Shown here piece by piece: positions 5,836 through 23,522 of a DNA stretch of 24,000 nucleotides. The position numbers and the translations under genes are program-made. The DNA is from Hadesarchaea archaeon. Lineage in GTDB: Archaea; Hadarchaeota; Hadarchaeia; Hadarchaeales; Hadarchaeaceae. Position 1 is the first letter of the stretch. Each line of letters opens with the position of its first letter. Location of the stretch: assembly GCA_029259175.1 (NCBI GenBank), contig JAPDJH010000004.1:163645-187644 (forward strand), written 5' to 3'. Under the pieces are notes generated by a model. The model did not search any database. It was not told where the DNA came from and saw nothing but the letters and a program-made list of their open reading frames with translations.

Positions 5836-6762
5836 TTAAGCAGCGGCTCTCCGCATCAGCTCAAACATCCGGTCGATAGCTGACTTGGTTTTGGCTGCTA
5901 TGGGCTCCTCAACTTTTACCTCGTGCTTTTCGTCGCGCAACGCTAGGTAAAGCTTTTCCAAGTTGTGCTCCTTCATTTGCTCGCACACCGCCGTTTCCAG
6001 CGCCGGTATGAACTCCTTGTCCGGGAGCTCTCGCTTGAGCCGGTAGATCATCCCAACCTCGGTTCCTATGATGAAGCGCTTTGCTGGCGACTCTTGGGCA
6101 TACGATAACATCTGACTGGTGCTACAGATCCGGTCTGCAAGTTTCTGAACTTCCGGGTCGCACTCGGGGTGAACCAAAACCTCGGCATCGGGATGCTGTT
6201 TCTTTTTTAGAAGGATATCTGCTGGTGTGAACATCCGGTGTACATAGCAGTAACCCTGATCCGGAATCGCGATAACTCTTTTTGATGATCTCTGCTGCAC
6301 AAACCACGCCAAGTTCTTATCCGGTCCGAATATGACCGTGTCCTCTTCTAGCGCGTTAACTACCTTCGGAGCGTTCGCCGAGGTGCACACGGCCGTCGCC
6401 TCGGCCTTTGCTTCCGCCAGCGTGTTCACGTACAAGACGACCGGAGCATCTGGATATCGCCGCTTCGCCCGTCTAACTTCTTCAGCCGGAAGCTGCGCCG
6501 CCATGGGGCACCTAGCGGCGGGATCCGGAATCAAAACTTTCTTGTCGGGGTTGAGAACCGCTGCCATCTCAGCCATGAAGTTAACGCCGCAGAAAACCAC
6601 AATCTCAGCATCCAGCTCGGTTGAAGCCCTCGCCAATTCAAGAGAATCGCCCAGAATGTCAGCCAAGTCTTGAATCTCAGGTCTCTGGTAGTTGTGGGCC
6701 AGGATGATGGCGCGCTTCTTTTCTTTCAGGGCCCTTATTTTTTGACTCAACCCCTCGCCCAT
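5836..6762 (-). CDS. nadA: quinolinate synthase NadA
   Basis: [44 protein letters not shown]..., [11 protein letters not shown], and VHPECDPEV are typical NadA blocks. The start is moved to the internal ATG at 6762. The track's 82-aa N-terminal extension is low-complexity and overlaps thi4. Confidence 0.9.
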
Positions 6763-6814
6763 GGTTTCGATAACACCATTATACCCAACCCTATTTAAGC
6801 AGAGAACCGAAAAG

Positions 6815-7609
6815 ATGAGAACGATGCCGGTCTTTGAACCCGTGAGCGAGCGCGAGATCACCCGAGCCATCGTCCAAGAGTTCGCCAAAGAACTCCAGCG
6901 CCACGCGGAAAGCGACGTCATCGTGGTGGGTGGCGGACCAAGTGGCCTCATGGCGGCCCGCGAACTCGCACGCAAGAACATCCGAGTCCTCGTGATCGAA
7001 CGCAACAACTACCTCGGGGGCGGCTTCTGGATAGGCGGCTATCTCATGAACAAGATCACGGTCCGGGCCCCAGGACAGGAGATCCTAGACGAACTAAAAG
7101 TCCCCTACACCGAGTTCTCAAAGGGTCTCTATGTCGCGGACGGGCCGCACGCGTGCTCAAAACTCATTGCTGCCGCCTGCGACGCCGGAGCCAAGATCCT
7201 CAACATGACATTCATCGAGGACGTGGTGTTGCGCGAAAACAACCGCGTTGGCGGCGTGGTCGTGAACTGGACTCCCATCAGCGCCCTGCCACGCGAAATA
7301 ACGTGCGTAGATCCCGTGGGGCTCGAAGCAAAATTCGTTGTGGACGCCACTGGACACGACGCAGCGGTGGTCCGACTGCTGGAGCGGCGCGGTCTGGTTA
7401 AAGTCCCCGGCTACGGCGCGATGTGGCTCGAGCGCTCGGAGGACGCGATAGTCGAACATACTGGCGAGTTCTATCCCGGGTTGGCTGTCACAGGAATGGC
7501 GGTATCTACGGCTTATGGTCTGCCAAGAATGGGGCCGACTTTTGGAGCGATGCTGTTGAGCGGGAAGCGAGTGGCCGAGGTAATCCATGAGAAGCTCAAA
7601 GGCACTTAG
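6815..7609 (+). CDS. thi4: thiazole synthase Thi4 (archaeal type)
   Basis: FAD/NAD-fold motif [19 protein letters not shown], plus [12 protein letters not shown] and [12 protein letters not shown]. The start is taken at the ATG at 6815 (MRTMPVF); 6824 is an alternative. The gene is divergent from nadA with about 52 bp between the starts. Confidence 0.9.
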
Positions 7610-8366
7610 AATCTTCATCTACCGAGATCCGGATCCCAATATTTTAAAGTGGACAGAACTTCGGGAGTACCTCAAAAAAAGAGTTGGATGCACGGTTGAG
7701 ATCCGGGAGCCCCTCTTCAAGCAAAACGAGTCTCTAGCCCGAGCATTCGCTGCAGCACGAGTCCATGACCCGCTAAAGCCGCTTGCGAATCGTGAGCCTC
7801 TCCCATCAGAAATCCAAATCGAAGAGAAATTTCTTGGGGCGCAAAAGCAGATCCCAGGAGTGCTCTACGACGGCCTCGAGATCCAGCGCCTGTGCCTCGG
7901 ACTTCTGCCCGTTGGAGAGCGAACGAGAGACCATCTCCACCTCGTCTTCGTCAACCGATTGATCGGGACATATGAACAGGACGGCCGCTATCACATTCAT
8001 GCTGCAGTTTTCGGCTTTCCTACTCTATTGTCTGTGCAGGGAGTTGTTTTTGGACCTGCAAGGCCAAAAGAATACTACACCCTGCGAGGCCAACTGAGCG
8101 AGGAGGAACTCTACGAGCGGCTCGAGCGCCGCTTTCTCGTGCTGGACGATCCGAGGCTGACCGAGGTCGTCAAGGGTTACGCGATACAAGCCGTTTTCTA
8201 CCACGTCTTCGGAAACCCGTTCTGCGAGAACAGTCAGTGCCGTCTCTACAATGCCCGCTGGCAGGAAGAACTGCTAAAGGCCCAGCTCAGCTCCCCTGAG
8301 TTCTGCGAGCGTCACGAACAAATGCTGCAAGAGTTCAAATCCGAAATCACTGGCACGCCCTGCTAA
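7587..8366 (+). CDS. archaemetzincin-like protein with degenerate active site (function unknown)
   Basis: The C-terminal block [42 protein letters not shown] follows the archaemetzincin spacing HExxHxxGx3Cx4CxM..CxxC. However, the first His and the catalytic Glu are replaced (A, V), M becomes L, and the last CxxC becomes CxxH. The gene overlaps the thi4 3' end by 23 nt. Confidence 0.45.
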
Positions 8367-9037
8367 GTCGCTGCTAAGGACTCCAAAAAGTCACTCAGAT
8401 CCTCGTCCAGCGTTTTAAGCTCAACGATTCTTTCCATCTCCCGCTCAACCAGCTGCCGCAGACCAATTCTGGCCTCGATTTCGTTCACCTCCCTCCGCTT
8501 CGCTGCGGTTCGTGGACGGCGAGGTGTCGCATAACAGCAGCTGGCATGAGTCTCCCGCCAGAGCCCCAGCTGCTTGGCGAGACGCTCGATCTCCAGCTTA
8601 TCCATCGCGAGTAGCGGCCGGAGGATCGGATATCGAATGCCCGCCGACACCGCCTGCAGGTTCTGCAACGTCTGCGACGCCTTCTGGCCCAGCGATTCGC
8701 CCGTGACTATCCCCGACGCCTCCACACGATCACACAGGAGCTCAGCGGCCATCAGCATCCCACGACGGCACAGCACGCACGCGTGTCTGCCAGCTTGGCG
8801 GAGCACGCATCTCAAAACCCGGCTCCACGGAAAGAGAAATGCGCGGGCAAACCGTGTCTTCCTTTTTAAAACACGTAAAACATCCACTGCCACGTAGAAA
8901 TTATCCTCGCATGTGTAGGGATAAAGAGCAAAGTGCACGGGAACTACTTCGAAGCCACGGGCCGCAAGCGCACACGCGACCGGAGAGTCTATGCCCCCCG
9001 ACACCAAACACACGACGCGCTCCACCAGCATTCCCAT
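8363..9037 (-). CDS. ThiI-like PP-loop ATP pyrophosphatase, stand-alone (no THUMP or rhodanese domain)
   Basis: PP-loop VVCLVSGGIDSPVA. ThiI-like block TGESLGQKASQTLQNLQAVSAGIRYPILRPLLAMDKLEIERLAKQLG. Cysteines CVLC and SCC. Only 136 bp of non-coding sequence lies upstream, so there is no room for an N-terminal THUMP domain. Confidence 0.75.
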   Translation of the reverse strand: MGMLVERVVCLVSGGIDSPVACALAARGFEVVPVHFALYPYTCEDNFYVAVDVLRVLKRKTRFARAFLFPWSRVLRCVLRQAGRHACVLCRRGMLMAAELLCDRVEASGIVTGESLGQKASQTLQNLQAVSAGIRYPILRPLLAMDKLEIERLAKQLGLWRETHASCCYATPRRPRTAAKRREVNEIEARIGLRQLVEREMERIVELKTLDEDLSDFLESLAAT

Positions 9038-9075
9038 CGCCTCATCGGCGGCCGCCTATATCAACCATTCGTTTT

Positions 9076-9089
9076 TATAACAACGTTAT
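9076..9089. promoter_or_regulatory. TATAACAACGTTAT box upstream of the ThiI-like gene
   Basis: An identical 14-mer recurs at 23841-23854. A 12/14 variant, TATAACGGCGTTAT, lies at 20864-20877. It contains ATAAC-N3-GTTAT dyad symmetry overlapping a TATA-like element. Confidence 0.5.
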
Positions 9090-9173
9090 GAATAAACTCG
9101 AGTTAAAACAATTGGCCGGAAAGACCAATAATTACTTCGACTGGAGTTCCGCTCAAAAACCTGAAACCCTGAA

Positions 9174-10382
9174 TCATTTTGAAATACTCAATCCGTATTT
9201 CTCTGCAATTTCCAAAAACGCCTCTGCAACTTTTTCTATTCGCTCACGGCTTAACCCGTACGTGTTCAATTTGAAATGCTTGGTTAAACCAGGCTGAATA
9301 CCAACTATTCCTCGATCTCTCAACTCCTCGTACAGAAAGAATCCCCTGCGCTTGTGATGTCGGGAAACTTCGTACAAACCCTCGGACTCCATGTGGATCA
9401 GCGTGTGATCTTTGGGCCTGACACCCAGCTGCCGCGTCCCCTCTATGCGCTCGAGCTGTTCAACCAGCCACCGGGCGTTCTCCACCTCCTCCGGCCATCT
9501 CTCGACTCGCTCGACCACGTGGGGAAAGGAGGCCATCATCGAAATGAGAGGACCACCCATCACGGTACAACCAAGCAGCGCGTATTCTTTTATGCTAAAC
9601 TTCCGTCCTGTCAGATCTCCCACGATCTGTGACGGCGCGAGCACTCGCTTCGCCATCTCCTTGGTCAGCGCAAGTACACCGGTGGAGGCACTCGCTGCCC
9701 AAGATTTATGACCGCTCCCTGTAATGATATCCGCTCCGAGCTCTCTCCCATCGATGGGCATCACACCCGCCGTGTAAGCGGCATTCAGCAAAAACGGAAC
9801 TTCGTACTCGTGAGCTATCTCTGCCACCCGTCTGGCATCGTTCAAATTGCCGTAGAGATAGTCCACATGGGTCAAAACCACGACCGCAGGCAATTTTCCG
9901 GTTTCGCGCTTTACCTCTTCTATCTTTGCCGCATAAGCATCGAGATCTACTCGAAATTCCGGATACCCGCTGTTCGGGACCTCTTTAATCTTCATCATGG
10001 CAAGCTCGGCCGCAACGTAGGTGGAATAGTGGGCCAGGCTGTCGATTACCACCACATCCCCCGGTCTACCAAGCATTCTGAACGCTATGAACTGCGCCTC
10101 GCGACACCGGGTCACGACACGCGCCACATCCATTCCAAGAAATTCCGCCAAGTCTTCAACGAAATCCGCTATGGGAGGCCGGGTAACCTTATCCAACCGG
10201 GGGGTTTTTGCAGGGCACCAATCACACGTAGAATACCCATCCCCAAATTCTGCCAATGCTTCTCTCGCCTCAGCGGTAAGAACCCCTCCACGCTGAATTG
10301 GATTGAGGTTGATATACCGATCCTCCTTAAAATCTCTCCTCAGATTCCGATACTTCTTCAGTCTCTCTTCGGAAAGCTTCAT
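9174..10382 (-). CDS. pscS: O-phosphoseryl-tRNA(Cys):Cys-tRNA synthase (SepCysS)
   Basis: The N-terminus is KYRNLRRDF..INLNPIQRGGVLTAEAREAL..FGDGYSTCDWC. The PLP-lysine block is ITGSGHKSWAASASTGVLAL. The 402-aa length and these motifs match SepCysS as I recall it from Archaeoglobus and methanogens. Its start overlaps the stop of the upstream E1 gene by 4 nt. Confidence 0.8.
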   Translation of the reverse strand: MKLSEERLKKYRNLRRDFKEDRYINLNPIQRGGVLTAEAREALAEFGDGYSTCDWCPAKTPRLDKVTRPPIADFVEDLAEFLGMDVARVVTRCREAQFIAFRMLGRPGDVVVIDSLAHYSTYVAAELAMMKIKEVPNSGYPEFRVDLDAYAAKIEEVKRETGKLPAVVVLTHVDYLYGNLNDARRVAEIAHEYEVPFLLNAAYTAGVMPIDGRELGADIITGSGHKSWAASASTGVLALTKEMAKRVLAPSQIVGDLTGRKFSIKEYALLGCTVMGGPLISMMASFPHVVERVERWPEEVENARWLVEQLERIEGTRQLGVRPKDHTLIHMESEGLYEVSRHHKRRGFFLYEELRDRGIVGIQPGLTKHFKLNTYGLSRERIEKVAEAFLEIAEKYGLSISK

Positions 10383-11173
10383 CCTCTACTCCTCCGGCCG
10401 CATATCTCACAGTGGGGATCGCGCTCAACTTTCATTACTTCAAACACCATCTCCATACCATCAAATATTAGCAACCGGCCTATCAATGGTCTCCCAAGAC
10501 CTGTGATCAGTTTTATCGCTTCCATTGCCTGCAAACAACCTATCACGCCCGGGGTTGCTCCGAGTACCGGGAATGCCCGCTTTCGCGGCGGGAGTGACGG
10601 AACCAAACACTGCAAACACGGCCCCTTCTTGGGCACAATAGTCATCAGCTGACCCAGGGTTCCCTCCACGGCCCCGTGAACAAGTGGAATTCTGTGCTTT
10701 ACACAGGCTCGGTTCAGCGCATACCTAGCAGGATAGTTGTCCGTGGCATCCACCACCACATCGGCACCGCGCACAAGAGGGTCCGCATTTTCGTTTGCCA
10801 CATGCAGAGATTTTCCCCTCACCCGCACATTTGGATTGAGAGCTCTCAGCTTCTCCATCGCCGAATCAGTTTTCTGGCGTCCGATGTCTTTATCCCAGTG
10901 CAAAATCTGACGATTGAGATTTGAGAGCTCTACTCGCTGATCGTCCACGAGCGTTAGCTTCCCCACACCCGCCGCTGTCAAATAAATACTGACCGGAGAC
11001 CCCAGACCGCCCAATCCTACAACCACCACATGCGCTCGCTTCAATTTGAGCTGACCTTTCCGACCAAAACCCGCAATCAACATCTGCCGACTATAACGTT
11101 CGAGTTCTTGAGGAGACAGTTTAGTCCTCATACCATTACCCTTTGGACTCCTGCTAAAAATACTTCCAACCAT
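10379..11173 (-). CDS. ThiF/MoeB/UbaA-type E1-like adenylyltransferase (no rhodanese domain)
   Basis: ERYSRQMLIAGFGRKGQLKLKRAHVVVVGLGGLGSPVSIYLTAAGVGKLTLVDDQRVELSNLNRQ. There are two CxxC pairs (CLQC and CEIC). The internal ATG at 11131 (MRTKLSPQELERYSRQ) is an alternative start. Confidence 0.9.
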   Translation of the reverse strand: MVGSIFSRSPKGNGMRTKLSPQELERYSRQMLIAGFGRKGQLKLKRAHVVVVGLGGLGSPVSIYLTAAGVGKLTLVDDQRVELSNLNRQILHWDKDIGRQKTDSAMEKLRALNPNVRVRGKSLHVANENADPLVRGADVVVDATDNYPARYALNRACVKHRIPLVHGAVEGTLGQLMTIVPKKGPCLQCLVPSLPPRKRAFPVLGATPGVIGCLQAMEAIKLITGLGRPLIGRLLIFDGMEMVFEVMKVERDPHCEICGRRSRG

Positions 11174-11176
11174 CGG

Positions 11177-11935
11177 TCAAGATTTTATACCGGGAACGAC
11201 TCCTCCACCAACCGGGACGGGACTCCTCTCATCAAAGGTTATAATCTCTGGAACCTCGCCCCAAACACCCACGTGTTCTCCACGTATTATCAGACATCCT
11301 TCTATCTCACGTATCCGGCTAGCCCGGTTCAACCCGTCTAAAATCGACTGTCGTGTGTCGGAACCGCGCACAGAATTCGCAACCGAAGTCGCAGCAGCGT
11401 CAGCTACCGAAGCCTCTCGGGCAAAGACCACGGTGGCGTCGGCATCGCCAAAACTAATCGAGTGTCCGATCGAACCAGAACTCGTACATATTCCGAGCGG
11501 CAATCTGGCCGATTTTATCAGAAAACCCAACTTACTGGATGTGCTGGCGGTGCCCGCATAAACTCCTACTATAAAATCTCGATCTCCCGCTATCGCAATG
11601 TCTCCACCATTTTCGACCAGCACATTCCTCGCTCCTTGCTCCAGAGCGGCCTCCATGGCTATCTGAGAAATCGCTCCGGCAACCGCTGCAAAAGGACCGA
11701 CCCGCGCAAGCTTTCCGGCCCTCAACATCAGCTCGATCACCCGCGGGTGTTCTCCCTCGAGCTCAACGGGTTCAAGTGACCAACGAAACTCTGGATAGGT
11801 CACAGCATAACGCTCCACCTCTTGTCTGGCCCTCAATGCCGCTTCTACCGCTGCATCGATCGCGCGCGCGTCGTCGGATTTTATAGTGAGTGCAGTCTCC
11901 TTGTAAACCCAGCGCTGAACGAGCAAATCCACCAC
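11177..11935 (-). CDS. UPF0280/COG2122 (ApbE-like) protein, MA1715-type sulfide-assimilation factor
   Basis: Blocks GPFAAVAGAISQIA, LVENGGDIAI, GICTSSGSIGHSISFGDADA and SVADAAATSVANSV match what I recall of the UPF0280 family. It lies between the NIL-ferredoxin and E1 genes. Confidence 0.6.
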   Translation of the reverse strand: MVDLLVQRWVYKETALTIKSDDARAIDAAVEAALRARQEVERYAVTYPEFRWSLEPVELEGEHPRVIELMLRAGKLARVGPFAAVAGAISQIAMEAALEQGARNVLVENGGDIAIAGDRDFIVGVYAGTASTSSKLGFLIKSARLPLGICTSSGSIGHSISFGDADATVVFAREASVADAAATSVANSVRGSDTRQSILDGLNRASRIREIEGCLIIRGEHVGVWGEVPEIITFDERSPVPVGGGVVPGIKS

Positions 11936-11936
11936 C

Positions 11937-12332
11937 TCACAACCTCGGAATCTTCAAAGCGCGCACCGGACACGCAGGAACACAGATCTCACACAAAACA
12001 CACTTCTGCTCATCCAGACCCAGCGAGGCATCCTCTTTCAGATACAATGCCTTGGTTGGACAGAGCGAAACACAAGCCCCACAGTGAACGCAGGAATCCC
12101 AGTCCACCCTGATCGCGTCTTTTATCTCTTGAAATTCTATTCCGCGTTTCGAGAGAGCGCTAAAAATCCGCTCCGCGTCCGAGTCCTTAACGGAAATCAG
12201 GATCTCCCCACCCTTTGTGTCCATGTCCGCATACAGGATGTTTACCAACACTCCCGTCTCTTTAATCACCGAAGCCAAAACAGGCTCCGCCGCTTTCTCC
12301 GCCGAGTATCGAAGCAAGATCCGCCTCGTCAT
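11937..12332 (-). CDS. NIL-domain / 2x[4Fe-4S] ferredoxin fusion (MA1822-type)
   Basis: An N-terminal NIL-like beta-alpha domain (RILLRYSAEKAAEPVLASVIKETGVLVNILYADMD) is followed by CVHCGACVSLCP and CVLCEICVPACP. Its start overlaps the upstream gene's stop by 4 nt. Confidence 0.8.
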   Translation of the reverse strand: MTRRILLRYSAEKAAEPVLASVIKETGVLVNILYADMDTKGGEILISVKDSDAERIFSALSKRGIEFQEIKDAIRVDWDSCVHCGACVSLCPTKALYLKEDASLGLDEQKCVLCEICVPACPVRALKIPRL

Positions 12333-13831
12333 TTTCTCCCACCTCCAATCAGCTTTGAAATATCATCGCTCGTCACTATCCCCCTGAGCCTGCCGCGAGC
12401 ATCAACAACCGGAACACCAGAGATCCCGAATTTATCCAGCTTTCTTGCAACGGCATCTATGGGCTCGTCTTCCCGCGCGGTTATCACCTGCCGTGTCATT
12501 ATTTCCGAAAGCTTCTGCTTGCCCTTTCCCACCGAAACCGCAATATCCCACGAAGTCACTATCCCGATCACGCGGTTTTCATCGTCCACAATGGGGAGGT
12601 GATCAAAGTTCTTCTCCGCGAATATCCGAGCCGCTTTGGTGATCGGATCCTCCGGCCTACCTACGACCACTTCGCGGGTCATTACCGCACCTGCCGTTAT
12701 GATCCGCGTCGGCTGTTTCATCGGGCGGAACTCCATATCCACAGGAAGCTGGCGCACCGGAGCGGTGAGGGAAAACTCCCCTCGCTCTATCAGCTCCTTG
12801 AGTTTCTCAGCGATTTCTCTCGCCACTTTGAGACTGCTGAGCGGACTGACCGGGACTTCCCGACCGTTCAATTCGATCTTGCCCTCCCACAGCTCCGCAT
12901 AGGTCAACTGCTTGAGCACCGGCCTGTCCCGTCGCGGAACTCCGTAGTCGAGCAAATCAATTTTAATCTCCTCATTGCTCCTGCCAGCGGTCCTCGCCAA
13001 ATCCTCGTCTAGAATCGGTATCGGAATCCCGATACCCACAAACAGCGATGTTCCATAGCGATGGATGTTCGCGCCACGCAGATACCGGGGTGACATCTCT
13101 TTTAAATCGCCCACCGTCATCAGCGTGCCCAGCTCTCGCTTCGGATCGTGCTGAGTGCCTTCCCAAACCACATATCCCTGAGCTCCGCCAATGAAAATTC
13201 GAGTTCCCGTGCCAATGGTCCGATAGGTGGGGTCTTTGTTCAGCGGACTGAGTTCCCCAGTACCAGCAAACGTAACGTTTCTGAATTCTGGAAGCAGGGT
13301 GCCCATATAGGTATAAATGGTCTCCTTCCGTGAATTGGTGGCAGCAACGTATCGTTGGTGAGCGTTTCTCGGATTCAGCAAAACGGCTTGGTTGAGGTCA
13401 TGGATGGTTATGGTCGTCTCCAGCTCCCTGCGCGGATAGCAATCGGTCCCGTATGCCAGAGCCCTAACATGGATCTCTTCGCCTCTGACCAAGTCCTCGA
13501 TCACGTGGCCTCCTCCATAGTCGAACCCCCGGGTTTCACTCAGCTGTGCGGCACCGATATATGCATCGACTGCTGCCACCCCTGTATACGCTTCGACATC
13601 GTTGAGCCAAACGCGTTGCATCTTGATGGGCGGATCAGCGTGCCCAAAGTTTAGCCAGGCACCCGAGCTACACATCGCACCAAACGTCCCGGTGGTCACC
13701 ACATCAACTTCTTTTGCCGCTGCTACGGCCCCCTTGCTCTTGACTATCTCGACCATCTCCTCGGCGGTAACGACCACGGCATCTCCACGCCTGATGCGCT
13801 CGTTGATTTCCTCGATTGTTTTCTTAACCAT
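12329..13831 (-). CDS. COG1900/DUF39 homocysteine-biosynthesis enzyme with two C-terminal CBS domains (MA1821/MJ0100-type)
   Basis: N-terminus KKTIEEINERIRRGDAVVVTAEEMVEIV...VDVVTTGTFGAMCSSGAWLNFGHADPPIKM. The C-terminal tandem CBS repeats are VMTREVVVGRPEDPITKAARIFAEKNFDHLPIVD and IMTRQVITAREDEPIDAVARKLDKFGISGVPVVD. Confidence 0.8.
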   Translation of the reverse strand: MVKKTIEEINERIRRGDAVVVTAEEMVEIVKSKGAVAAAKEVDVVTTGTFGAMCSSGAWLNFGHADPPIKMQRVWLNDVEAYTGVAAVDAYIGAAQLSETRGFDYGGGHVIEDLVRGEEIHVRALAYGTDCYPRRELETTITIHDLNQAVLLNPRNAHQRYVAATNSRKETIYTYMGTLLPEFRNVTFAGTGELSPLNKDPTYRTIGTGTRIFIGGAQGYVVWEGTQHDPKRELGTLMTVGDLKEMSPRYLRGANIHRYGTSLFVGIGIPIPILDEDLARTAGRSNEEIKIDLLDYGVPRRDRPVLKQLTYAELWEGKIELNGREVPVSPLSSLKVAREIAEKLKELIERGEFSLTAPVRQLPVDMEFRPMKQPTRIITAGAVMTREVVVGRPEDPITKAARIFAEKNFDHLPIVDDENRVIGIVTSWDIAVSVGKGKQKLSEIMTRQVITAREDEPIDAVARKLDKFGISGVPVVDARGRLRGIVTSDDISKLIGGGRK

Positions 13832-13897
13832 GCCCGTCTCACCCTCCCCATTCTCGATAGTTATATTTATAAAGTTTTTTTATTCCTGCTAGTTATA

Positions 13898-16789: not shown

Positions 16790-17575
16790 ATGTGCCTAGG
16801 AGTGCCAGCGCGTGTAGAAGAGGTGCGCGGAATCACAGCGATTGCAGATTTTGGAGGGATCAAACGTGAAATCTTGGTCGGAGTGAAAGATTTGCAGCCG
16901 GGCGATCTGGTGATGGTTCATGCGGGAATGGCTATCGGCAAGCTCACGGAGGAAGCCGTGATAGAAAATCTAATGGTGTACAAAGAGCTTTTCGTTGCCG
17001 AGTCCTTGATGCGGGGGGAAAGCGAGGAAAGTGCAAAAAGAACCGCTGAGAAAGAAATAGAGAAAATTCTGGAAGAGTTGGGAGTGGAAAAACCCATGAT
17101 CAAAGAAACAGAGGACGTCAGAACAGCCGAGCAGGTGGAAACGCCCATTCCGCCCAATGCGTTCAAGCGCAGGTATCGGGCCTCGCTCTCTGATACGGAC
17201 TACCTGCAAGTGATGCACTACACCAACTATCTGCGCTATTGTGAGCGCGCACAACAAGAGCTGCTGGACTCTATAGGGTTCGGGTACGCCAAGCTGATCC
17301 ACCAACACGGTCTTTTCATCCCTACTGTTGAAACCTCTATCAGGCTCAAGGGACCCATCAGGCTGGACAACGAATTTGAGGTTGCCGTGTGGGTGGAAGA
17401 AATCGGTCGAAAACACATCCGCTTTAAAAACGTGATAAGGAACCTCACGTCTAACAAGATTGTGGCCGAAGCAACGACCATAGCGGTCTGCACCGACATC
17501 AGTCTGATGGAGGGGATGGAGCTTCCGGCAGAACTGGTGGAAAAACTCAGGCCATACATGGAGGGTGCGAAATGA
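16790..17575 (+). CDS. HypC-family chaperone fused to a 4HBT/YbgC-type hotdog thioesterase domain (261 aa)
   Basis: The start is at the ATG at 16790, 2 nt after the hypD stop and preceded by GGGAAAGGGGAGGA. The N-terminus MCLGVPARVEEV...GDLVMVHAGMAI is a hallmark HypC domain (Cys2, His). An acidic linker covers about aa 75-125. The C-terminal part is RRYRASLSDTDYLQVMHYTNYLRYCERAQQELLDSIGFGYAKLIHQHGLFIPTVETSIRLKGPIRLDNEFEVAVWVEEIGRKHIRFKN, which is the 4-hydroxybenzoyl-CoA thioesterase pattern including the DTD Asp. Confidence 0.85.
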   Translation: MCLGVPARVEEVRGITAIADFGGIKREILVGVKDLQPGDLVMVHAGMAIGKLTEEAVIENLMVYKELFVAESLMRGESEESAKRTAEKEIEKILEELGVEKPMIKETEDVRTAEQVETPIPPNAFKRRYRASLSDTDYLQVMHYTNYLRYCERAQQELLDSIGFGYAKLIHQHGLFIPTVETSIRLKGPIRLDNEFEVAVWVEEIGRKHIRFKNVIRNLTSNKIVAEATTIAVCTDISLMEGMELPAELVEKLRPYMEGAK

Positions 17576-17883
17576 GGGTGAAGGTGAGGCTGTTCGCGAA
17601 CTTCAGAGAGGTGATGGGGACGGGAAATCTCGAAGTTGAAAACGTGCACAATATCGGGGAGCTGCTAAGCAAACTCACCGAGATGAAAAGAGAAATGGAA
17701 AAAGAACTCTACTACCCCGGCACAAAAGAACTCGTAAAAACGGTGCAGATAATGCACAACGGAAAAAACGTCAAATTACCCCAGGGTCTTGAAGCGGAGC
17801 TGAAAGAGGGCGACGAGATTGCAATATTTCCGCCCGTGGCCGGGGGAGAGGGCTCGAACACATCAGCTTCTCATGTCTCTTAA
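17572..17883 (+). CDS. MoaD/ThiS-family ubiquitin-like sulfur carrier encoded as a pro-protein (GG followed by an 11-aa tail)
   Basis: The start overlaps the upstream stop in an ATGA. The C-terminal region DEIAIFPPVAGG is the classic MoaD end, but the ORF continues EGSNTSASHVS before the stop. The last 21 nt overlap the convergent XdhC-like gene. Confidence 0.85.
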   Translation: MRVKVRLFANFREVMGTGNLEVENVHNIGELLSKLTEMKREMEKELYYPGTKELVKTVQIMHNGKNVKLPQGLEAELKEGDEIAIFPPVAGGEGSNTSASHVS

Positions 17884-18685: not shown

Positions 18686-19120
18686 ATGAGAATAGCGGGC
18701 GGAGATTTATCGGTGCTGATACGTAAACAGGACTACCAGCTCATTGCGGAACACGCACAGAAAGAGGCGCCCAACGAGGCCTGTGGAGCGCTGCTCGGAA
18801 AACACGAAAACGAAAAAATCGTTGTGGAACGAGTCGTGAAGGCAAAAAATATCCGCGAGTCCCCGGTGGAATACGAAATCTCAGCAGAAGAAATCTTGGA
18901 AATCTATAGGCTCGCTGAAGTGCTGGAGCTCGAGGTGGTCGGGTTTTACCACAGCCATCCGTTCCACGGTCCATTGTGGTCAACTGTGGACGACGAGCGT
19001 AGCAAGCTGTGGATCAACCACCTTTTCCTGATTTACTCCGTGGCCCAGAAGGAGGCCAGATGTTACAAACGAGTAGCCGAAAATCGTGTTGAGGAGGAGC
19101 CCATCGAAATCGTTGAATAA
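18686..19120 (+). CDS. JAMM/MPN+ metalloprotease (Mov34 family)
   Basis: The start is taken at the ATG at 18686; the track start at 18509 overlaps the XdhC gene. EACGALLG carries the catalytic Glu, and GFYHSHPFHGPLWSTVD is the HxHx7Sx2D motif. Confidence 0.85.
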   Translation: MRIAGGDLSVLIRKQDYQLIAEHAQKEAPNEACGALLGKHENEKIVVERVVKAKNIRESPVEYEISAEEILEIYRLAEVLELEVVGFYHSHPFHGPLWSTVDDERSKLWINHLFLIYSVAQKEARCYKRVAENRVEEEPIEIVE

Positions 19121-19310: not shown

Positions 19311-20519
19311 CTAAGCCAGCGATCTGGAGATCTCTTCGACTACTGAAATCAGCCTTTCGATTTCTTCTTTTTTATTGTACAAATAGACCGAAGCCCTCAC
19401 CGATCCCTGCGGTCGGTTCAGCACCTCTCTGTGCAGGGGCATCGCACAGTGGTGGCCCGAGCGCACCATTATTTTGGCAGCGTTATCCAAGGTCGCTGCA
19501 ACATCGTGGGGGCCAAGTCCCTCCACATTAAAAGCCACTATTCCTGTGCGCTTAGAGGGCGGTGGGCCATAGATCTCAACCCGCTCAATCGACGAGAGCC
19601 CATCATACAACTCGCGCGTAAGCTTTCGTTCGTGAGCCGCGATTGCTGTCATCCCGTGAGTGCGCAGATATCTTACCGCTTCAGCCAATCCAATTGTCTC
19701 AGCAATTGGTGGGGTGCCCGCCTCAAAACCTTCAGGCGGTTTAGCCAGCTTGTAACCCTTCGACGAAACCTCATCGATGGTGCCTCCGCCAATAGCTAGC
19801 GGATCGAGTTCTGCCAACGCGTCCGCTCGAGCATAGAGTACTCCTACGCCCGTGGGGCCCAGCATCTTGTGACCGGAGAAAACCAAAAAGTCACAACCCA
19901 GCTTGCGAACACTCACAGGCATGTGCGGCACCGACTGTGCACCGTCTACGAGGACTAGAGCACCATGCTCGTGGGCTATCCGAACCACTTCCTTGACTGG
20001 GAGAACACACCCAAGCACGTTCGACACATGAGTGACCGCCACGAGTTTTGTTTGGTCGGAAACAGCTCGTTCAAAATCATCCAACGAAATCTCCCCCTCA
20101 CGTGATGCGCGTACGAGAACCAAGCGCACACCGCAGTCTTGGGCGAGACGTTGCCATGGAATGAAATTCGAGTGGTGCTCGATAAGTGTTGTAACGATGT
20201 GGTCTCCTCTCTTCCACCGCAATCCTCTCGCTACAGCATTTATTCCCTCTGTAGCATTCTTTGTGAAAATGATTTCCTCTCGTGCCGACGCCGATATGAA
20301 ACGCTGAATCTCTCTGCGGGCCTCTTCCATCTCGTGTGTCGCCCGCTGGGAAAGCCGGTGCACCCCACGTTCCACGTTGGCGCGGTACTCGCGGTAAAAC
20401 GAAAGCATGCGCTCGATCACTGGCTCAGGGGTCAGACTGCTTGCAGCGTTGTCGAGGTATATGATGCCCGTATCGAGAATGGGAAAATCCTTTCTTATCC
20501 GATCTACTCGCAACATCAT
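19311..20519 (-). CDS. sufS: class II (SufS/CsdA-type) cysteine desulfurase
   Basis: YLDNAASSLTP, the PLP-lysine block FLVFSGHKMLGPTGVGVLY, and the group II active-site block RSGHHCAMPL. Confidence 0.9.
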   Translation of the reverse strand: MMLRVDRIRKDFPILDTGIIYLDNAASSLTPEPVIERMLSFYREYRANVERGVHRLSQRATHEMEEARREIQRFISASAREEIIFTKNATEGINAVARGLRWKRGDHIVTTLIEHHSNFIPWQRLAQDCGVRLVLVRASREGEISLDDFERAVSDQTKLVAVTHVSNVLGCVLPVKEVVRIAHEHGALVLVDGAQSVPHMPVSVRKLGCDFLVFSGHKMLGPTGVGVLYARADALAELDPLAIGGGTIDEVSSKGYKLAKPPEGFEAGTPPIAETIGLAEAVRYLRTHGMTAIAAHERKLTRELYDGLSSIERVEIYGPPPSKRTGIVAFNVEGLGPHDVAATLDNAAKIMVRSGHHCAMPLHREVLNRPQGSVRASVYLYNKKEEIERLISVVEEISRSLA

Positions 20520-20892: not shown

Positions 20893-21315
20893 ATGAAGCT
20901 CCTGATGCTTCACTGTGATTACTTCTCATTCGCCACCACCCAGCCAACCAAGTTTGCCGAGCAAGTGGGTGAAGAATGCAAGAGTTGCGGTATAAAGGAC
21001 ACGCTTGTGATCTTCACCACCGTCGAGCGCAAGGACGAGCGCGACCCTAAGGCCGTTGTGGAATGCGCCGTGCACGAAATAAACACCACCACCAAACGCT
21101 TGGGTGTGAGAAAACTGATAGTATATCCCTTCGTCCACCTCTCAGCCGAAGCTGGAAGCCCCCAAGCCGCAAAACACATAATCGACACGTTATACCAACA
21201 ACTACAGAGCGCCGGATACGAGGTCAAGAAAGCACCTTTCGGATGGGAAAAAGTGTTCTCGCTGACTTCCAAAGGACACCCCCTGTCAGAGTCTTTCAAA
21301 ACCATTGAAGTTTAA
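20893..21315 (+). CDS. free-standing archaeal ThrRS N-terminal editing-domain homologue (DTD-like fold)
   Basis: MKLLMLHCDYFSF..., LIVYPFVHLSAEAGSPQAA and KKAPFGWEKVFSLTSKGHPLSESFKTI parallel the Pyrococcus ThrRS N-terminal editing domain as I recall it ([49 protein letters not shown]). The ORF ends after 140 aa, with no synthetase or anticodon-binding domain. Confidence 0.7.
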   Translation: MKLLMLHCDYFSFATTQPTKFAEQVGEECKSCGIKDTLVIFTTVERKDERDPKAVVECAVHEINTTTKRLGVRKLIVYPFVHLSAEAGSPQAAKHIIDTLYQQLQSAGYEVKKAPFGWEKVFSLTSKGHPLSESFKTIEV

Positions 21316-21965: not shown

Positions 21966-22350
21966 GATACTCCTGCAGCGCCTTTTTCAAGGTCTTATAC
22001 GCCAGGACGGCACAGTGCATCTTGAGTGCTGGCAGTCCGCCAAGCGCATCGGTGATTTGTTTAATGGTGAGTTTCTCCGCTTCCTCGACACTCTTGCCTT
22101 TGATAAGTTCGGTGGTCATAGAACCCGTGGCTATGTTCGCCGCGCATCCGAACGACAGAAACTTGGCGTCGACGATTTTGTTGTTCTCGATTCTCAGAAA
22201 CATCTTGAACATGTCTCCGCACTGCGGGTCTCCCTCTACCGCCACCACTGTGGGATCCTTCATTTCTCCCATGTTCTTTGGATTCCGAAAGAGTTCGAGA
22301 ACTTTTTCCGTGTACCTCAGCAAACTGCGCTCGGTGTATTCGGCTGGCAT
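21937..22350 (-). CDS. iscU: IscU/NifU-N-type Fe-S scaffold
   Basis: The start is at the ATG at 22350, overlapping the iscS stop as TGATG. The three scaffold Cys are in their usual contexts (GDPQCGDMF, SFGCAANIA, LKMHCAVLA). Confidence 0.9.
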   Translation of the reverse strand: MPAEYTERSLLRYTEKVLELFRNPKNMGEMKDPTVVAVEGDPQCGDMFKMFLRIENNKIVDAKFLSFGCAANIATGSMTTELIKGKSVEEAEKLTIKQITDALGGLPALKMHCAVLAYKTLKKALQEYRAKSGGASA

Positions 22351-23522
22351 CACATTTCCTCCGGTTTTATCGGGCTGATCCGACGCAGGTCTTCTATGAC
22401 TCTTGGAAGGACTTCCAGTGCATGGTCGATTTCTTTTTCTTCTGTGAGCCACGTGAACGTGAAGCGGATTGCCCCATGTGCAATCTCTGGCTTGACCCCA
22501 ATGGCCGACAGCACATGGCTGGGCTCCAGCTTTCTTGTGGAACAGGCCGAACCGGTGGCTACAGCGATTCCGTGCATATCCAGCCGTAGAAGAATGGATT
22601 CTCCTTCGATCCCCTTAAACGAATAATTTACGTTCGCCGGACTGCGTTTTTCTCCTCGCGGACCATGCAGTACAACGTGTGGGATTTTATCCTCGATACC
22701 CTGCATGAGCCTCGCTTGGAGCTTCCGCATATGTGCTATGTGGGCATCAAAGTGGTCAAACGCAAGTTCAACGGCCTTGGCGAATCCCATTATGCCCGGG
22801 ATATTCTCGGTGCCTGGCCTCAGAGCTGAAAGCGAGATGTATCCGTAATCGATCGGCTCGATTCGTGTCCCCTCTCTCACGTAAAGCGCTCCAGCTCCTT
22901 TGGGGCCGTGAATCTTGTGAGCGCTTATGCTCAGCAAATCCACGCCCATGTGGCCAACATCTATCGGAACACGGGCATAACCAGCGGCGGCGTTTACGTG
23001 AAAATACGTGTGCTGATTCCGCTCTTTCACGATCTTGACTATCTCCTCAACGTTTTGTATCGTTCCGATCTCGTCGTTCACGTTTCCGATACTTACCAAG
23101 ATGGTTTCGTTGGTAAGCTTCTCTTCAACGGTTTTTGGATCGACAAATCCTTCACTGTCCACCGGCAGGTAATCCACTTTGAATCCCTCCTTTTCAAGCC
23201 GCTCACACACCCGAAGCACAGAAGGGTTCTCAACCTTGGTAGTTATGATGTGGCGACCGCGATTCCTGTTGGCATACGCTACCCCCCGGAGTGCGATATC
23301 GTTCGCTTCTGTGGCTCCCGAGGTAAACACGATCTCTTCTGGTTTTCCGCCGATGCTGTGCGCAATCACCTCTCGGGCCCGGTCGACCGCCGCGGCGGCG
23401 CGCGTGCCCAGCTCGTACAAGAAAATCGGATGACCAAAATCTTCCTCCATATACTTTCTCATTTCCTGTACAACTTGGGGGTGTGTCCAAGTGGTGCTCC
23501 CGCAATCCAGGTAGGCCTTCAT
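22350..23522 (-). CDS. iscS: class I (IscS/NifS-type) cysteine desulfurase
   Basis: The PLP-lysine block is LSISAHKIHGPKGAGALY and the active-site loop is ATGSACS. TSGATEAND is also present. The start overlaps the stop of the upstream HTH gene in an ATGA. Confidence 0.9.
   Translation of the reverse strand: MKAYLDCGSTTWTHPQVVQEMRKYMEEDFGHPIFLYELGTRAAAAVDRAREVIAHSIGGKPEEIVFTSGATEANDIALRGVAYANRNRGRHIITTKVENPSVLRVCERLEKEGFKVDYLPVDSEGFVDPKTVEEKLTNETILVSIGNVNDEIGTIQNVEEIVKIVKERNQHTYFHVNAAAGYARVPIDVGHMGVDLLSISAHKIHGPKGAGALYVREGTRIEPIDYGYISLSALRPGTENIPGIMGFAKAVELAFDHFDAHIAHMRKLQARLMQGIEDKIPHVVLHGPRGEKRSPANVNYSFKGIEGESILLRLDMHGIAVATGSACSTRKLEPSHVLSAIGVKPEIAHGAIRFTFTWLTEEKEIDHALEVLPRVIEDLRRISPIKPEEM

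Follow-up and report, generated by a model that had tools for sequence, protein, structure and literature searches.

An archaeal operon joining SepCysS and sulfide-assimilation genes to an E1-like enzyme, with a possible sulfur-relay link

The window examined here is a 24,000-nucleotide stretch of a Hadarchaeota metagenome-assembled genome (G000:C2:163645-187644; 1.31 Mb, 23 contigs, 90.9% complete), and its central feature is a five-gene operon that ends with SepCysS, the Sep-tRNA:Cys-tRNA synthase. Throughout, G-labels denote the genomes compared, G000 being that of the window, and L-labels denote SepCysS and related loci that were examined. Five minus-strand open reading frames fill positions 9174-13831 and encode, in this order, a HcyBio/DUF39 protein with a CBS pair, a NIL-ferredoxin, a UPF0280/COG2122 protein, a MoeB/ThiF-type E1-like adenylyltransferase (E1) and SepCysS (Table 1). 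COG1900, NIL-ferredoxin, COG2122 and SepCysS are physically united with E1 in this unit. A first-pass annotation of this DNA had named the five families in the same order, and each assignment is backed by Pfam or NCBIfam matches; a reassignment of SepCysS or the UPF0280 protein to another family, singled out beforehand as evidence against the annotation, did not occur. The genes had also been described as tightly packed and mostly overlapping. The tight packing holds, but only two pairs overlap (HcyBio/NIL-ferredoxin and E1/SepCysS, by 4 nt each), and the other two nearly abut, with gaps of 1 nt (NIL-ferredoxin/UPF0280) and 3 nt (UPF0280/E1). Judging from gene spacing and the flanking spacers, the five genes probably form a single transcript. 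The 66-nt upstream spacer contains, on the minus strand, an A/T-rich TATA-like box at approximately 13864-13873 and a purine-rich ribosome-binding stretch, and the 136-nt downstream spacer contains T-runs, a separate A/T box and an ATAAC-N3-GTTAT dyad before a ThiI-like gene. This dyad overlaps the A/T box that precedes the ThiI-like gene.

HcyBio matches PF01837 across profile positions 1-349 of 349 (2.2e-146, residues 18-355), and its two CBS domains match the MJ0100 CBS structures 3KPB/3KPC at about 6e-33. It has a cysteine within a GTDCYP motif and is a predicted L-aspartate-semialdehyde sulfurtransferase of the MA1821/MJ0100 type. NIL-ferredoxin combines a NIL domain (PF09383, 7.8e-11, residues 3-68) with two Fer4 domains (residues 75-125). 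The UPF0280 protein has no Pfam match; it is recognized by NF003321/PRK04334 (1.2e-76, 257.7 bits, just under the 262 cut-off), by NF003324 (5e-73) and by its similarity to PDB 2O34 (5.7e-36). Among 14 control genomes, the NF003321 model matches solely M. jannaschii and M. acetivorans, the latter encoding MA1715, which we take to be a member of UPF0280. By homology, HcyBio-CBS and NIL-ferredoxin would make homocysteine from aspartate semialdehyde and reduced sulfur, and the COG2122 protein would act as a sulfide-trafficking helper of the MA1715 type. The C-termini of HcyBio, COG2122 and NIL-ferredoxin were also considered as possible E1 substrates ending in a glycine pair (GG), and this idea was rejected after no conserved GG was found in approximately 20 relatives.

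The same protein families are known from Methanosarcina acetivorans (MA1821/MA1822, MA1715 and SepCysS) and from Desulfovibrio (DUF39, NIL and COG2122), and their models are matched over full length here. Further points of likeness are the MJ0100-type CBS pair and the setting of a sulfide-dependent anaerobe without classical homocysteine enzymes. Work by Rauch and colleagues between 2014 and 2017 reportedly dealt with MA1821/MA1822, MA1715 and SepCysS in M. acetivorans. Those organisms have the genes mostly scattered, and the connection between them came from profiling and genetics, whereas here they form one operon with E1 between COG2122 and SepCysS; the published model contains no E1 or ubiquitin-like protein (Ubl). 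Desulfovibrio vulgaris carries DUF39, NIL-ferredoxin and COG2122 at three unlinked loci, and the genetic study of these genes sets the thiocarboxylate route apart as a pathway of its own (Price et al., 2018, PMC5764234). The first-pass statement that the link between SepCysS and this trio had come from profiling and genetics, and not from shared operons, is nearly right. Clade VII SepCysS loci have been described in Hadesarchaea and MSBL1 (Mukai et al., 2017, PMC5424206). The window SepCysS is of the same lineage, has an 8-residue insertion relative to M. jannaschii, and likewise lies near a tRNA-Thr-ED gene and "a few sulfur metabolism genes". The main text of that study names no E1, Ubl, JAMM protease or COG1900/NIL/COG2122 trio as operon partners.

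SepCysS scores 511 bits against TIGR02539 (cut-off 365.25) and 570.5 bits against NF006810 (cut-off 301), and matches M. jannaschii SepCysS 3WKR at 1.2e-116. The pyridoxal phosphate (PLP) lysine K225 (SGHKS) and three conserved cysteines of the kind used in persulfide or cluster chemistry, C53/C56 (CDWC) and C272 (LGCT), align with the catalytic residues of the M. jannaschii enzyme. By homology, it would convert Sep-tRNA(Cys), made by SepRS encoded elsewhere, into Cys-tRNA(Cys); SepRS was looked for in the same genome and found at C5:14296-15867 with 540.8 bits. No cysS match for CysRS at E<=1e-10 and no MetY/MetB-type (Cys_Met_Meta_PP) enzyme was found in the 91%-complete genome, and HcyBio/NIL-ferredoxin and SepRS/SepCysS are for this reason regarded as its main routes to homocysteine and cysteine. 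The genome also encodes a CysK-type cysteine synthase (G000:C5:66701-67732; L083 11201-12232) that scores 364 bits against TIGR01139, above cut-off. Free and tRNA-bound cysteine may be made separately, given CysK beside SepRS/SepCysS and no CysRS found, and CysK is a possible further client of thiocarboxylate sulfur. Two ThrC-like genes elsewhere in the genome were considered as MetM-type homocysteine synthases and set aside, both proteins being 36% identical to the PALP enzyme of a relative, G010, with no clear orthologue.

E1 covers PF00899 (ThiF) at profile positions 1-237 of 238 (6.5e-75), passes the MoeB model NF004281 (275.9 bits, cut-off 266) and can be aligned over its full length with MoeB and ThiF of E. 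coli (MoeB 1JW9 at 9e-54). It keeps the GLGGLG nucleotide-binding loop and the zinc CxxC pairs CLQC and CEIC. The crossover-loop cysteine is missing, with MoeB Cys187 and ThiF Cys184 falling in an alignment gap (the UbaA counterpart is C188), and it is likewise missing from the E1 proteins of close relatives. The Pfam domain search found no rhodanese domain in E1. The missing loop cysteine points to an enzyme that would adenylate its carriers but form neither an E1~Ubl thioester nor an acyl-disulfide, and because it has neither rhodanese domain nor loop cysteine, E1 would need an external sulfur source. Translation may begin at Met15 (11131). The C-terminal tail of COG2122 (PVPVGGGVVPG; 11177-11230) and the first 14 codons of E1 (..SIFSRSPKGNG; 11131-11173) faintly resemble the Ubl end or fusion junction seen in relatives. 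A remnant of a deleted Ubl between COG2122 and E1 was considered and rejected, the tblastn values of 0.04-1 on a 500-nt target not being significant.

Table 1. Features of the operon and its surroundings, with positions in the window
Feature	Position	Strand	Basis or remark
HcyBio/DUF39 (COG1900) with C-terminal CBS pair, first operon gene	12329..13831	-	PF01837, CBS x2
NIL domain plus 2x[4Fe-4S] ferredoxin, MA1822-type HcyBio partner	11937..12332	-	PF09383, Fer4 x2
UPF0280/COG2122, MA1715-type sulfide-trafficking factor (by homology)	11177..11935	-	NF003321, NF003324, PDB 2O34
MoeB/ThiF/UbaA-type E1-like adenylyltransferase, 264 aa	10379..11173	-	PF00899, NF004281
SepCysS (Sep-tRNA:Cys-tRNA synthase), last operon gene	9174..10382	-	TIGR02539, NF006810, 3WKR
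66-nt spacer 5' of HcyBio, candidate operon promoter	13832..13897	-	read from sequence
136-nt spacer 3' of SepCysS, probable operon end	9038..9173	-	read from sequence
MoaD-like ubiquitin-fold sulfur carrier precursor	17572..17883	+	PF02597 1.9e-15
JAMM/MPN+ metalloprotease	~18686..19120	+	PF14464 4.7e-18
THUMP-less, rhodanese-less ThiI-like PP-loop protein, probably own transcription unit	8363..9037	-	PF02568 8e-43
Thi4	6761..7609		2-3 kb from E1
DUF6775	7587..8366		2-3 kb from E1
Aminotran_5 desulfurase-like gene	19311-20519		near operon
Aminotran_5 desulfurase-like gene	22350-23522		near operon
tRNA-Thr-ED, stand-alone gene	20893-21315		10.5 kb from SepCysS

Three GG-type carriers are encoded in G000: MoaD (C3:147806), whose gene immediately precedes that of MoaE; a small ThiS (C2:114382), which immediately precedes NcsA; and the MoaD-like Ubl of the window, whose C-terminus reads ...VAGG and is followed by an 11-residue tail that masks the GG. 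A MoaD-like carrier and a JAMM protease had been noted about 6 kb away; both are present, at a distance of 3.7-5 kb from the operon's 5' end and of approximately 6.4 kb from E1. The window Ubl is 38-48% identical to Ubls that lie inside the operon in relatives. The JABs next to the cluster in L009-L020, L057 and L060 are matched by the window JAMM and not by the second JAB protein of the genome (tblastn, 32-41% identity), and JAMM abuts the SepCysS/E1 cluster in relatives.

These parts suggest how sulfur might pass through the operon. E1, a MoeB/TtuC/UbaA-like enzyme with a zinc site, would activate all three GG carriers of the genome, and the resulting acyl-adenylates would be turned into thiocarboxylates by the sulfide or persulfide pool handled by COG2122. 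The carrier thiocarboxylate could then hand over sulfur in protected form to SepCysS and perhaps also to HcyBio, in parallel with CysO-CysM and MetO-MetM, where a PLP enzyme joins a carrier thiocarboxylate to an amino acid activated by phosphorylation. The JAMM protease would trim or release the carrier, and shared transcription would tie the supply of E1 to the making of sulfur amino acids. The strength of this proposal differs between its parts. A sulfide-to-amino-acid operon that carries a multi-client E1 with a real sulfur-relay link is given a little short of an even chance. It is plausible that thiocarboxylate feeds SepCysS or homocysteine synthesis, with a likelihood between unlikely and nearly even. 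That the thiocarboxylate made by E1 and trimmed or recycled by JAMM is the physiological sulfur donor of SepCysS, and perhaps also feeds the DUF39 enzyme, is the boldest form and is considered unlikely. The linkage itself makes the sulfur donor of the SepCysS pathway testable, without identifying the donor.

The case for a relay rests on how often E1 and SepCysS are found together. SepCysS, HcyBio, ThiF, UPF0280 and MoaE were searched in 60 relatives and ThiS in 36, with coordinates compared by eye and adjacency taken as at most 600 bp between the ends of hidden Markov model (HMM) matches; named loci were surveyed by tblastn on 47 SepCysS loci. The linkage recurs in Hadarchaeales and beyond. 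The HcyBio-NIL-UPF0280-E1-SepCysS order is also present in G006, G011, G012, G017, G021, G023, G026-G028 and G030, and partially in G019 and G036, genomes that span several genera of one family. E1 is adjacent to SepCysS in 27 of the 47 E1-bearing Hadarchaeales genomes and in 12 of 19 genera, compared with approximately 0.2% expected by chance, a comparison that the relatedness of the genomes keeps from being a formal test. All six genomes with two SepCysS genes also have two E1 genes, compared with 4 of 50 others (hypergeometric ~6e-6, with no more than five genera represented among the six). The arrangement alternates with another one, E1 lying beside MoaE in nine genomes (G005, G007, G009, G014, G037, G041, G044, G047 and G051). 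Two of these have two E1 genes each; the second copy of G007 adjoins SepCysS and is counted among the 27, and that of G041 lies approximately 6 kb from the second SepCysS.

The composition of the cluster varies among these relatives. In 11 named Hadarchaeota loci, a MoaD-like Ubl ending in ..IFPPV(A/S)GG lies between COG2122 and E1, either free or fused to E1 (~340 aa). Fusions run in frame through the GG (junction ..PPVAGG-KLTPGEL..) in L013, L015, L017, L018, L020 and L021, with open reading frames of approximately 340 aa, and such a fusion must be cleaved before the carrier can work. Ca. Hadarchaeum yellowstonense and its kin have a SepCysS-E1-TusA order with a convergent JAMM and a DUF169 gene. 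In G010 (L057, G010:C1 3190-10284), DUF169-SepCysS is divergent from two unknown open reading frames, PALP, a Ubl~E1 fusion and TusA, with JAMM convergent, and DUF169 adjoins SepCysS in L012 too. In G040 (L075 373-1296) and G043 (L077 355-1206), a non-orthologous, divergent PRK08223-like E1 of 283-307 aa lies between the homocysteine genes and SepCysS; no MoaE was found in the family of these two genomes. In the closest relatives, whose SepCysS is 78% identical, a NifS-like desulfurase lies directly upstream of SepCysS and replaces E1 (L007 4302-6785; L055, G003:C1, 3458-5920).

Adjacency of E1 and SepCysS extends to other archaea and takes about six distinct layouts, in Hadarchaeales, Methanomethylicia, a Bathyarchaeia metagenome-assembled genome and another archaeal lineage, that is, three or more phyla. 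E1 and SepCysS are divergent neighbours in 12 named loci, 11 from Methanomethylicota/Nitrososphaerota and one from Bathyarchaeia. In four Methanomethylicia genomes, two of them complete Methanosuratincola genomes, there is no E1 other than the one next to SepCysS, and MoaE and every Ubl are far off. G057, a 100% complete genome of the other lineage, has a tight PALP(ThrC/MetM-like)-ThiS-CxxCxxCC-ThiF-SepCysS operon (L059, G057:C2, 5418-9387) and a separate MoaD-MoaE pair elsewhere; no HcyBio and no COG2122 were found in it.

A different reading of this pattern is that E1 is a housekeeping MoeB/UbaA enzyme that is merely clustered with SepCysS. The carriers would feed only molybdopterin or tungstopterin synthesis and tRNA thiolation, SepCysS and HcyBio would take sulfide or persulfide through COG2122, and the location would reflect the co-regulation of sulfur consumers or gene shuffling in compact 1-Mb genomes. 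This is a substantial but still doubtful explanation. It does not predict SepCysS adjacency in approximately six layouts and three or more phyla by molybdenum-cofactor logic alone, nor the coupling of two SepCysS genes with two E1 genes. Nor does it foresee that an unrelated E1-like gene takes the slot of E1 in a family without detected MoaE, or that JAMM and TusA lie at the cluster borders. The sulfur-relay link is favoured because the number of layouts, the spread across at least three phyla and the copy-number coupling exceed the prediction of a purely molybdopterin-related role, and because another E1-like gene has displaced E1 in situ, JAMM and TusA lie at the borders and MetM-type modules are fused to SepCysS operons.

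A number of observations nevertheless weigh against a dedicated role for E1 and in favour of the housekeeping explanation. E1 is the sole ThiF-family gene in G000 and must therefore also serve the MoaD-MoaE and ThiS-NcsA pairs, which lie elsewhere and need an E1. In an IQ-TREE analysis of 50 E1 sequences, the window E1 falls in a clade of 25 (support 99/95) that holds every enzyme of the UPF0280-Ubl-E1-SepCysS order together with all eight sampled E1s from (Ubl-)E1-MoaE operons. The enzymes form a single orthologous MoeB-like lineage, found in a MoaE context in some genomes and in a SepCysS context in others. The carriers point the same way. No carrier gene lies beside E1 in the window, where COG2122 ends 3 nt before the E1 start and leaves no room. 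In G011 and G012, whose Ubl lies inside the operon, no MoaD adjoins MoaE, and in G000, G004, G013 and G020, whose Ubl lies outside, MoaD is next to MoaE; the in-operon Ubl of relatives is for this reason probably MoaD itself. The in-operon Ubls are also as close to G000 MoaD (39-53% identical) as to the window Ubl (38-48%).

Genomes in which E1 went undetected belong to the same side of the balance. SepCysS and the trio are present in G003, a 95%-complete genome of the same genus in 9 contigs, where neither E1 nor an intact MoaE was found, and G008, G034 and G042 have SepCysS and the trio with E1 and MoaE not found. Overall, E1 and MoaE are jointly undetected in six Hadarchaeales genomes (G002, G003, G008, G034, G042 and G046), all of which keep SepCysS; six other Hadarchaeales genomes have E1 without MoaE. 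E1 is therefore not obligatory for SepCysS or the trio, and it clearly has other clients. Outside Hadarchaeales, no E1 was found within 10 kb of the SepCysS loci of Methanotrichaceae (Methanothrix), Helarchaeota and Hydrothermarchaeota, and the M. jannaschii control has no strong ThiF match. SepCysS reportedly uses sulfide in vitro and bears persulfides on its own cysteines, findings attributed to Liu in 2012 and to Rauch in 2017. The first-pass proposal of a protein-thiocarboxylate (Ubl-COSH) step in supplying sulfur for cysteine or homocysteine thus stands in part: the recurrent E1 linkage agrees with it, while the single multi-client E1, the absence of an in-operon Ubl in the window and the relative in which no E1 was found speak against it.

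The direction of sulfur flow could also be reversed. In that case COG2122, a persulfide-bearing SepCysS, or both would charge the carrier adenylates made by E1 in place of a rhodanese, and E1 would be the client of the operon. The lack of a rhodanese domain and crossover-loop cysteine, which leaves E1 in need of an external sulfur donor, is consistent with this arrangement, as are the weak but real matches of SepCysS to cysteine desulfurase families, the NifS-like desulfurase directly upstream of SepCysS in same-genus relatives and the TusA gene that follows E1 in other layouts. However, two Aminotran_5 desulfurase-like genes near the operon could do the job, sulfide alone may thiolate acyl-adenylates, and a role of SepCysS as sulfur donor to proteins is hypothetical. 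Reversed flow is thus judged improbable.

A further candidate client lies next to the operon. ThiF and ThiS genes near Thi4-DUF6775 have been assigned to Thi4, and DUF6775 has been linked to the suicide type of Thi4 (Oliveira-Filho et al., 2026, PMC13325395). By analogy, E1 and the carrier would serve the neighbouring Thi4-DUF6775 thiazole module, whose two genes are 2-3 kb from E1. Thi4 and HcyBio are neighbours in divergent orientation in L008, L011, L021 and L058, and the same study counts HcyBio among the genes located no more than 10 genes from Thi4 and worked with a DUF6775 from Hadesarchaea. The window Thi4, however, has a DATGHDA stretch of the sulfide-dependent, non-suicide type and would need no carrier, and E1-SepCysS adjacency persists without a nearby Thi4 in Methanomethylicia and G057. 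This explanation is considered very improbable, and a suicide Thi4 was rejected as a carrier client on the grounds that the window Thi4 is of the sulfide-dependent type. The non-cysteine stretch is accompanied by a match to TIGR00292 "sulfide-dependent", yet DUF6775 follows the gene.

The proposed sulfur relay resembles several described systems in part. The CysO-CysM-MoeZ-Mec+ system of M. tuberculosis uses the same types of parts, namely an E1, a GG carrier, a JAMM protease and a PLP enzyme that acts on a phosphoserine ester, and the likeness is one of mechanistic analogy. In the window, E1, carrier, JAMM and PLP enzyme all lie within 10 kb, with carrier and JAMM 4-5 kb from the E1-SepCysS pair; relatives have more compact versions. 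The window carrier has a tail that would need trimming, and the window E1 lacks the rhodanese domain of MoeZ. SepCysS, a fold-type I enzyme whose substrate is phosphoserine attached to tRNA, has no homology to CysM, MetM or MetY. Thiocarboxylate routes to homocysteine have been described with MetM/MetO/MoeZ/Mec in Streptomyces albulus (Hasebe et al., 2024, as cited in bioRxiv 10.1101/2024.10.14.618325), and HcyS/HcyF/HcyD/MetY of Wolinella is comparable. The relatives G010 and G057 place a ThrC-like PALP, a Ubl and E1 beside SepCysS, and their gene content shows that modules of this predicted thiocarboxylate type do couple to SepCysS. The G010 module also includes TusA and JAMM. G000 has no clear MetM orthologue, its homocysteine route being of the DUF39 type.

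A single E1 that serves several carriers, for molybdopterin and for tRNA thiolation, is known from Thermus TtuC, Haloferax UbaA and the Thermococcus Ubl system (Hidese et al., 2024, PMC11323500), and G000 is arranged likewise. Those E1 genes are not reported next to SepCysS or homocysteine genes, and the window E1 lacks the crossover-loop cysteine of UbaA and MoeB. An earlier survey gave no strong new links for archaeal E1 genes (Makarova and Koonin, 2010). A literature search, with subscription-only papers outside its scope, found no paper that connects SepCysS to thiocarboxylates, Ubls or E1 enzymes.

The linkage bears on the sulfur donor of SepCysS in vivo, a question as old as the description of the SepRS/SepCysS pathway, and on sulfur trafficking in sulfide-dependent archaea in general. 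The published model invokes persulfides and the COG2122 protein without a ubiquitin-like carrier. The recurrent coupling of E1 and SepCysS, accompanied in relatives by a GG carrier, JAMM and TusA in several layouts and phyla, gives a concrete and cheap biochemical test. If a carrier thiocarboxylate proved to be the SepCysS donor, Hadarchaeota, Methanomethylicia and related archaea would be making cysteine on tRNA by a counterpart of CysO-CysM. Protein-thiocarboxylate chemistry would then reach a substrate carried by tRNA, and the ancestors of the ubiquitin system would gain a link to genetic-code biosynthesis. If the relay proved false, the locus would still be a clean example of a compact sulfur regulon around a multi-client E1.

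No small open reading frame that might encode a SepCysE/SepCysSn adaptor lies upstream of SepCysS, the E1 gene overlapping its start, and downstream it is followed by the ThiI-like gene. SepCysS is adjacent to a ThiI-like gene in L007, L022, L024, L048 and L055 as well. Such a gene follows SepCysS in Hadarchaeota, Bathyarchaeia and Baldrarchaeum, and lies 2.3 kb away in Helarchaeota loci; its product could be a sulfur-delivery partner of SepCysS. No tRNA-Cys gene was found within the window. The tRNA-Thr-ED gene of the window stands alone, and tRNA-Thr-ED lies within 0.3-0.7 kb of the second SepCysS copy in G007, G026, G035 and G041, as described by Mukai et al. (2017).

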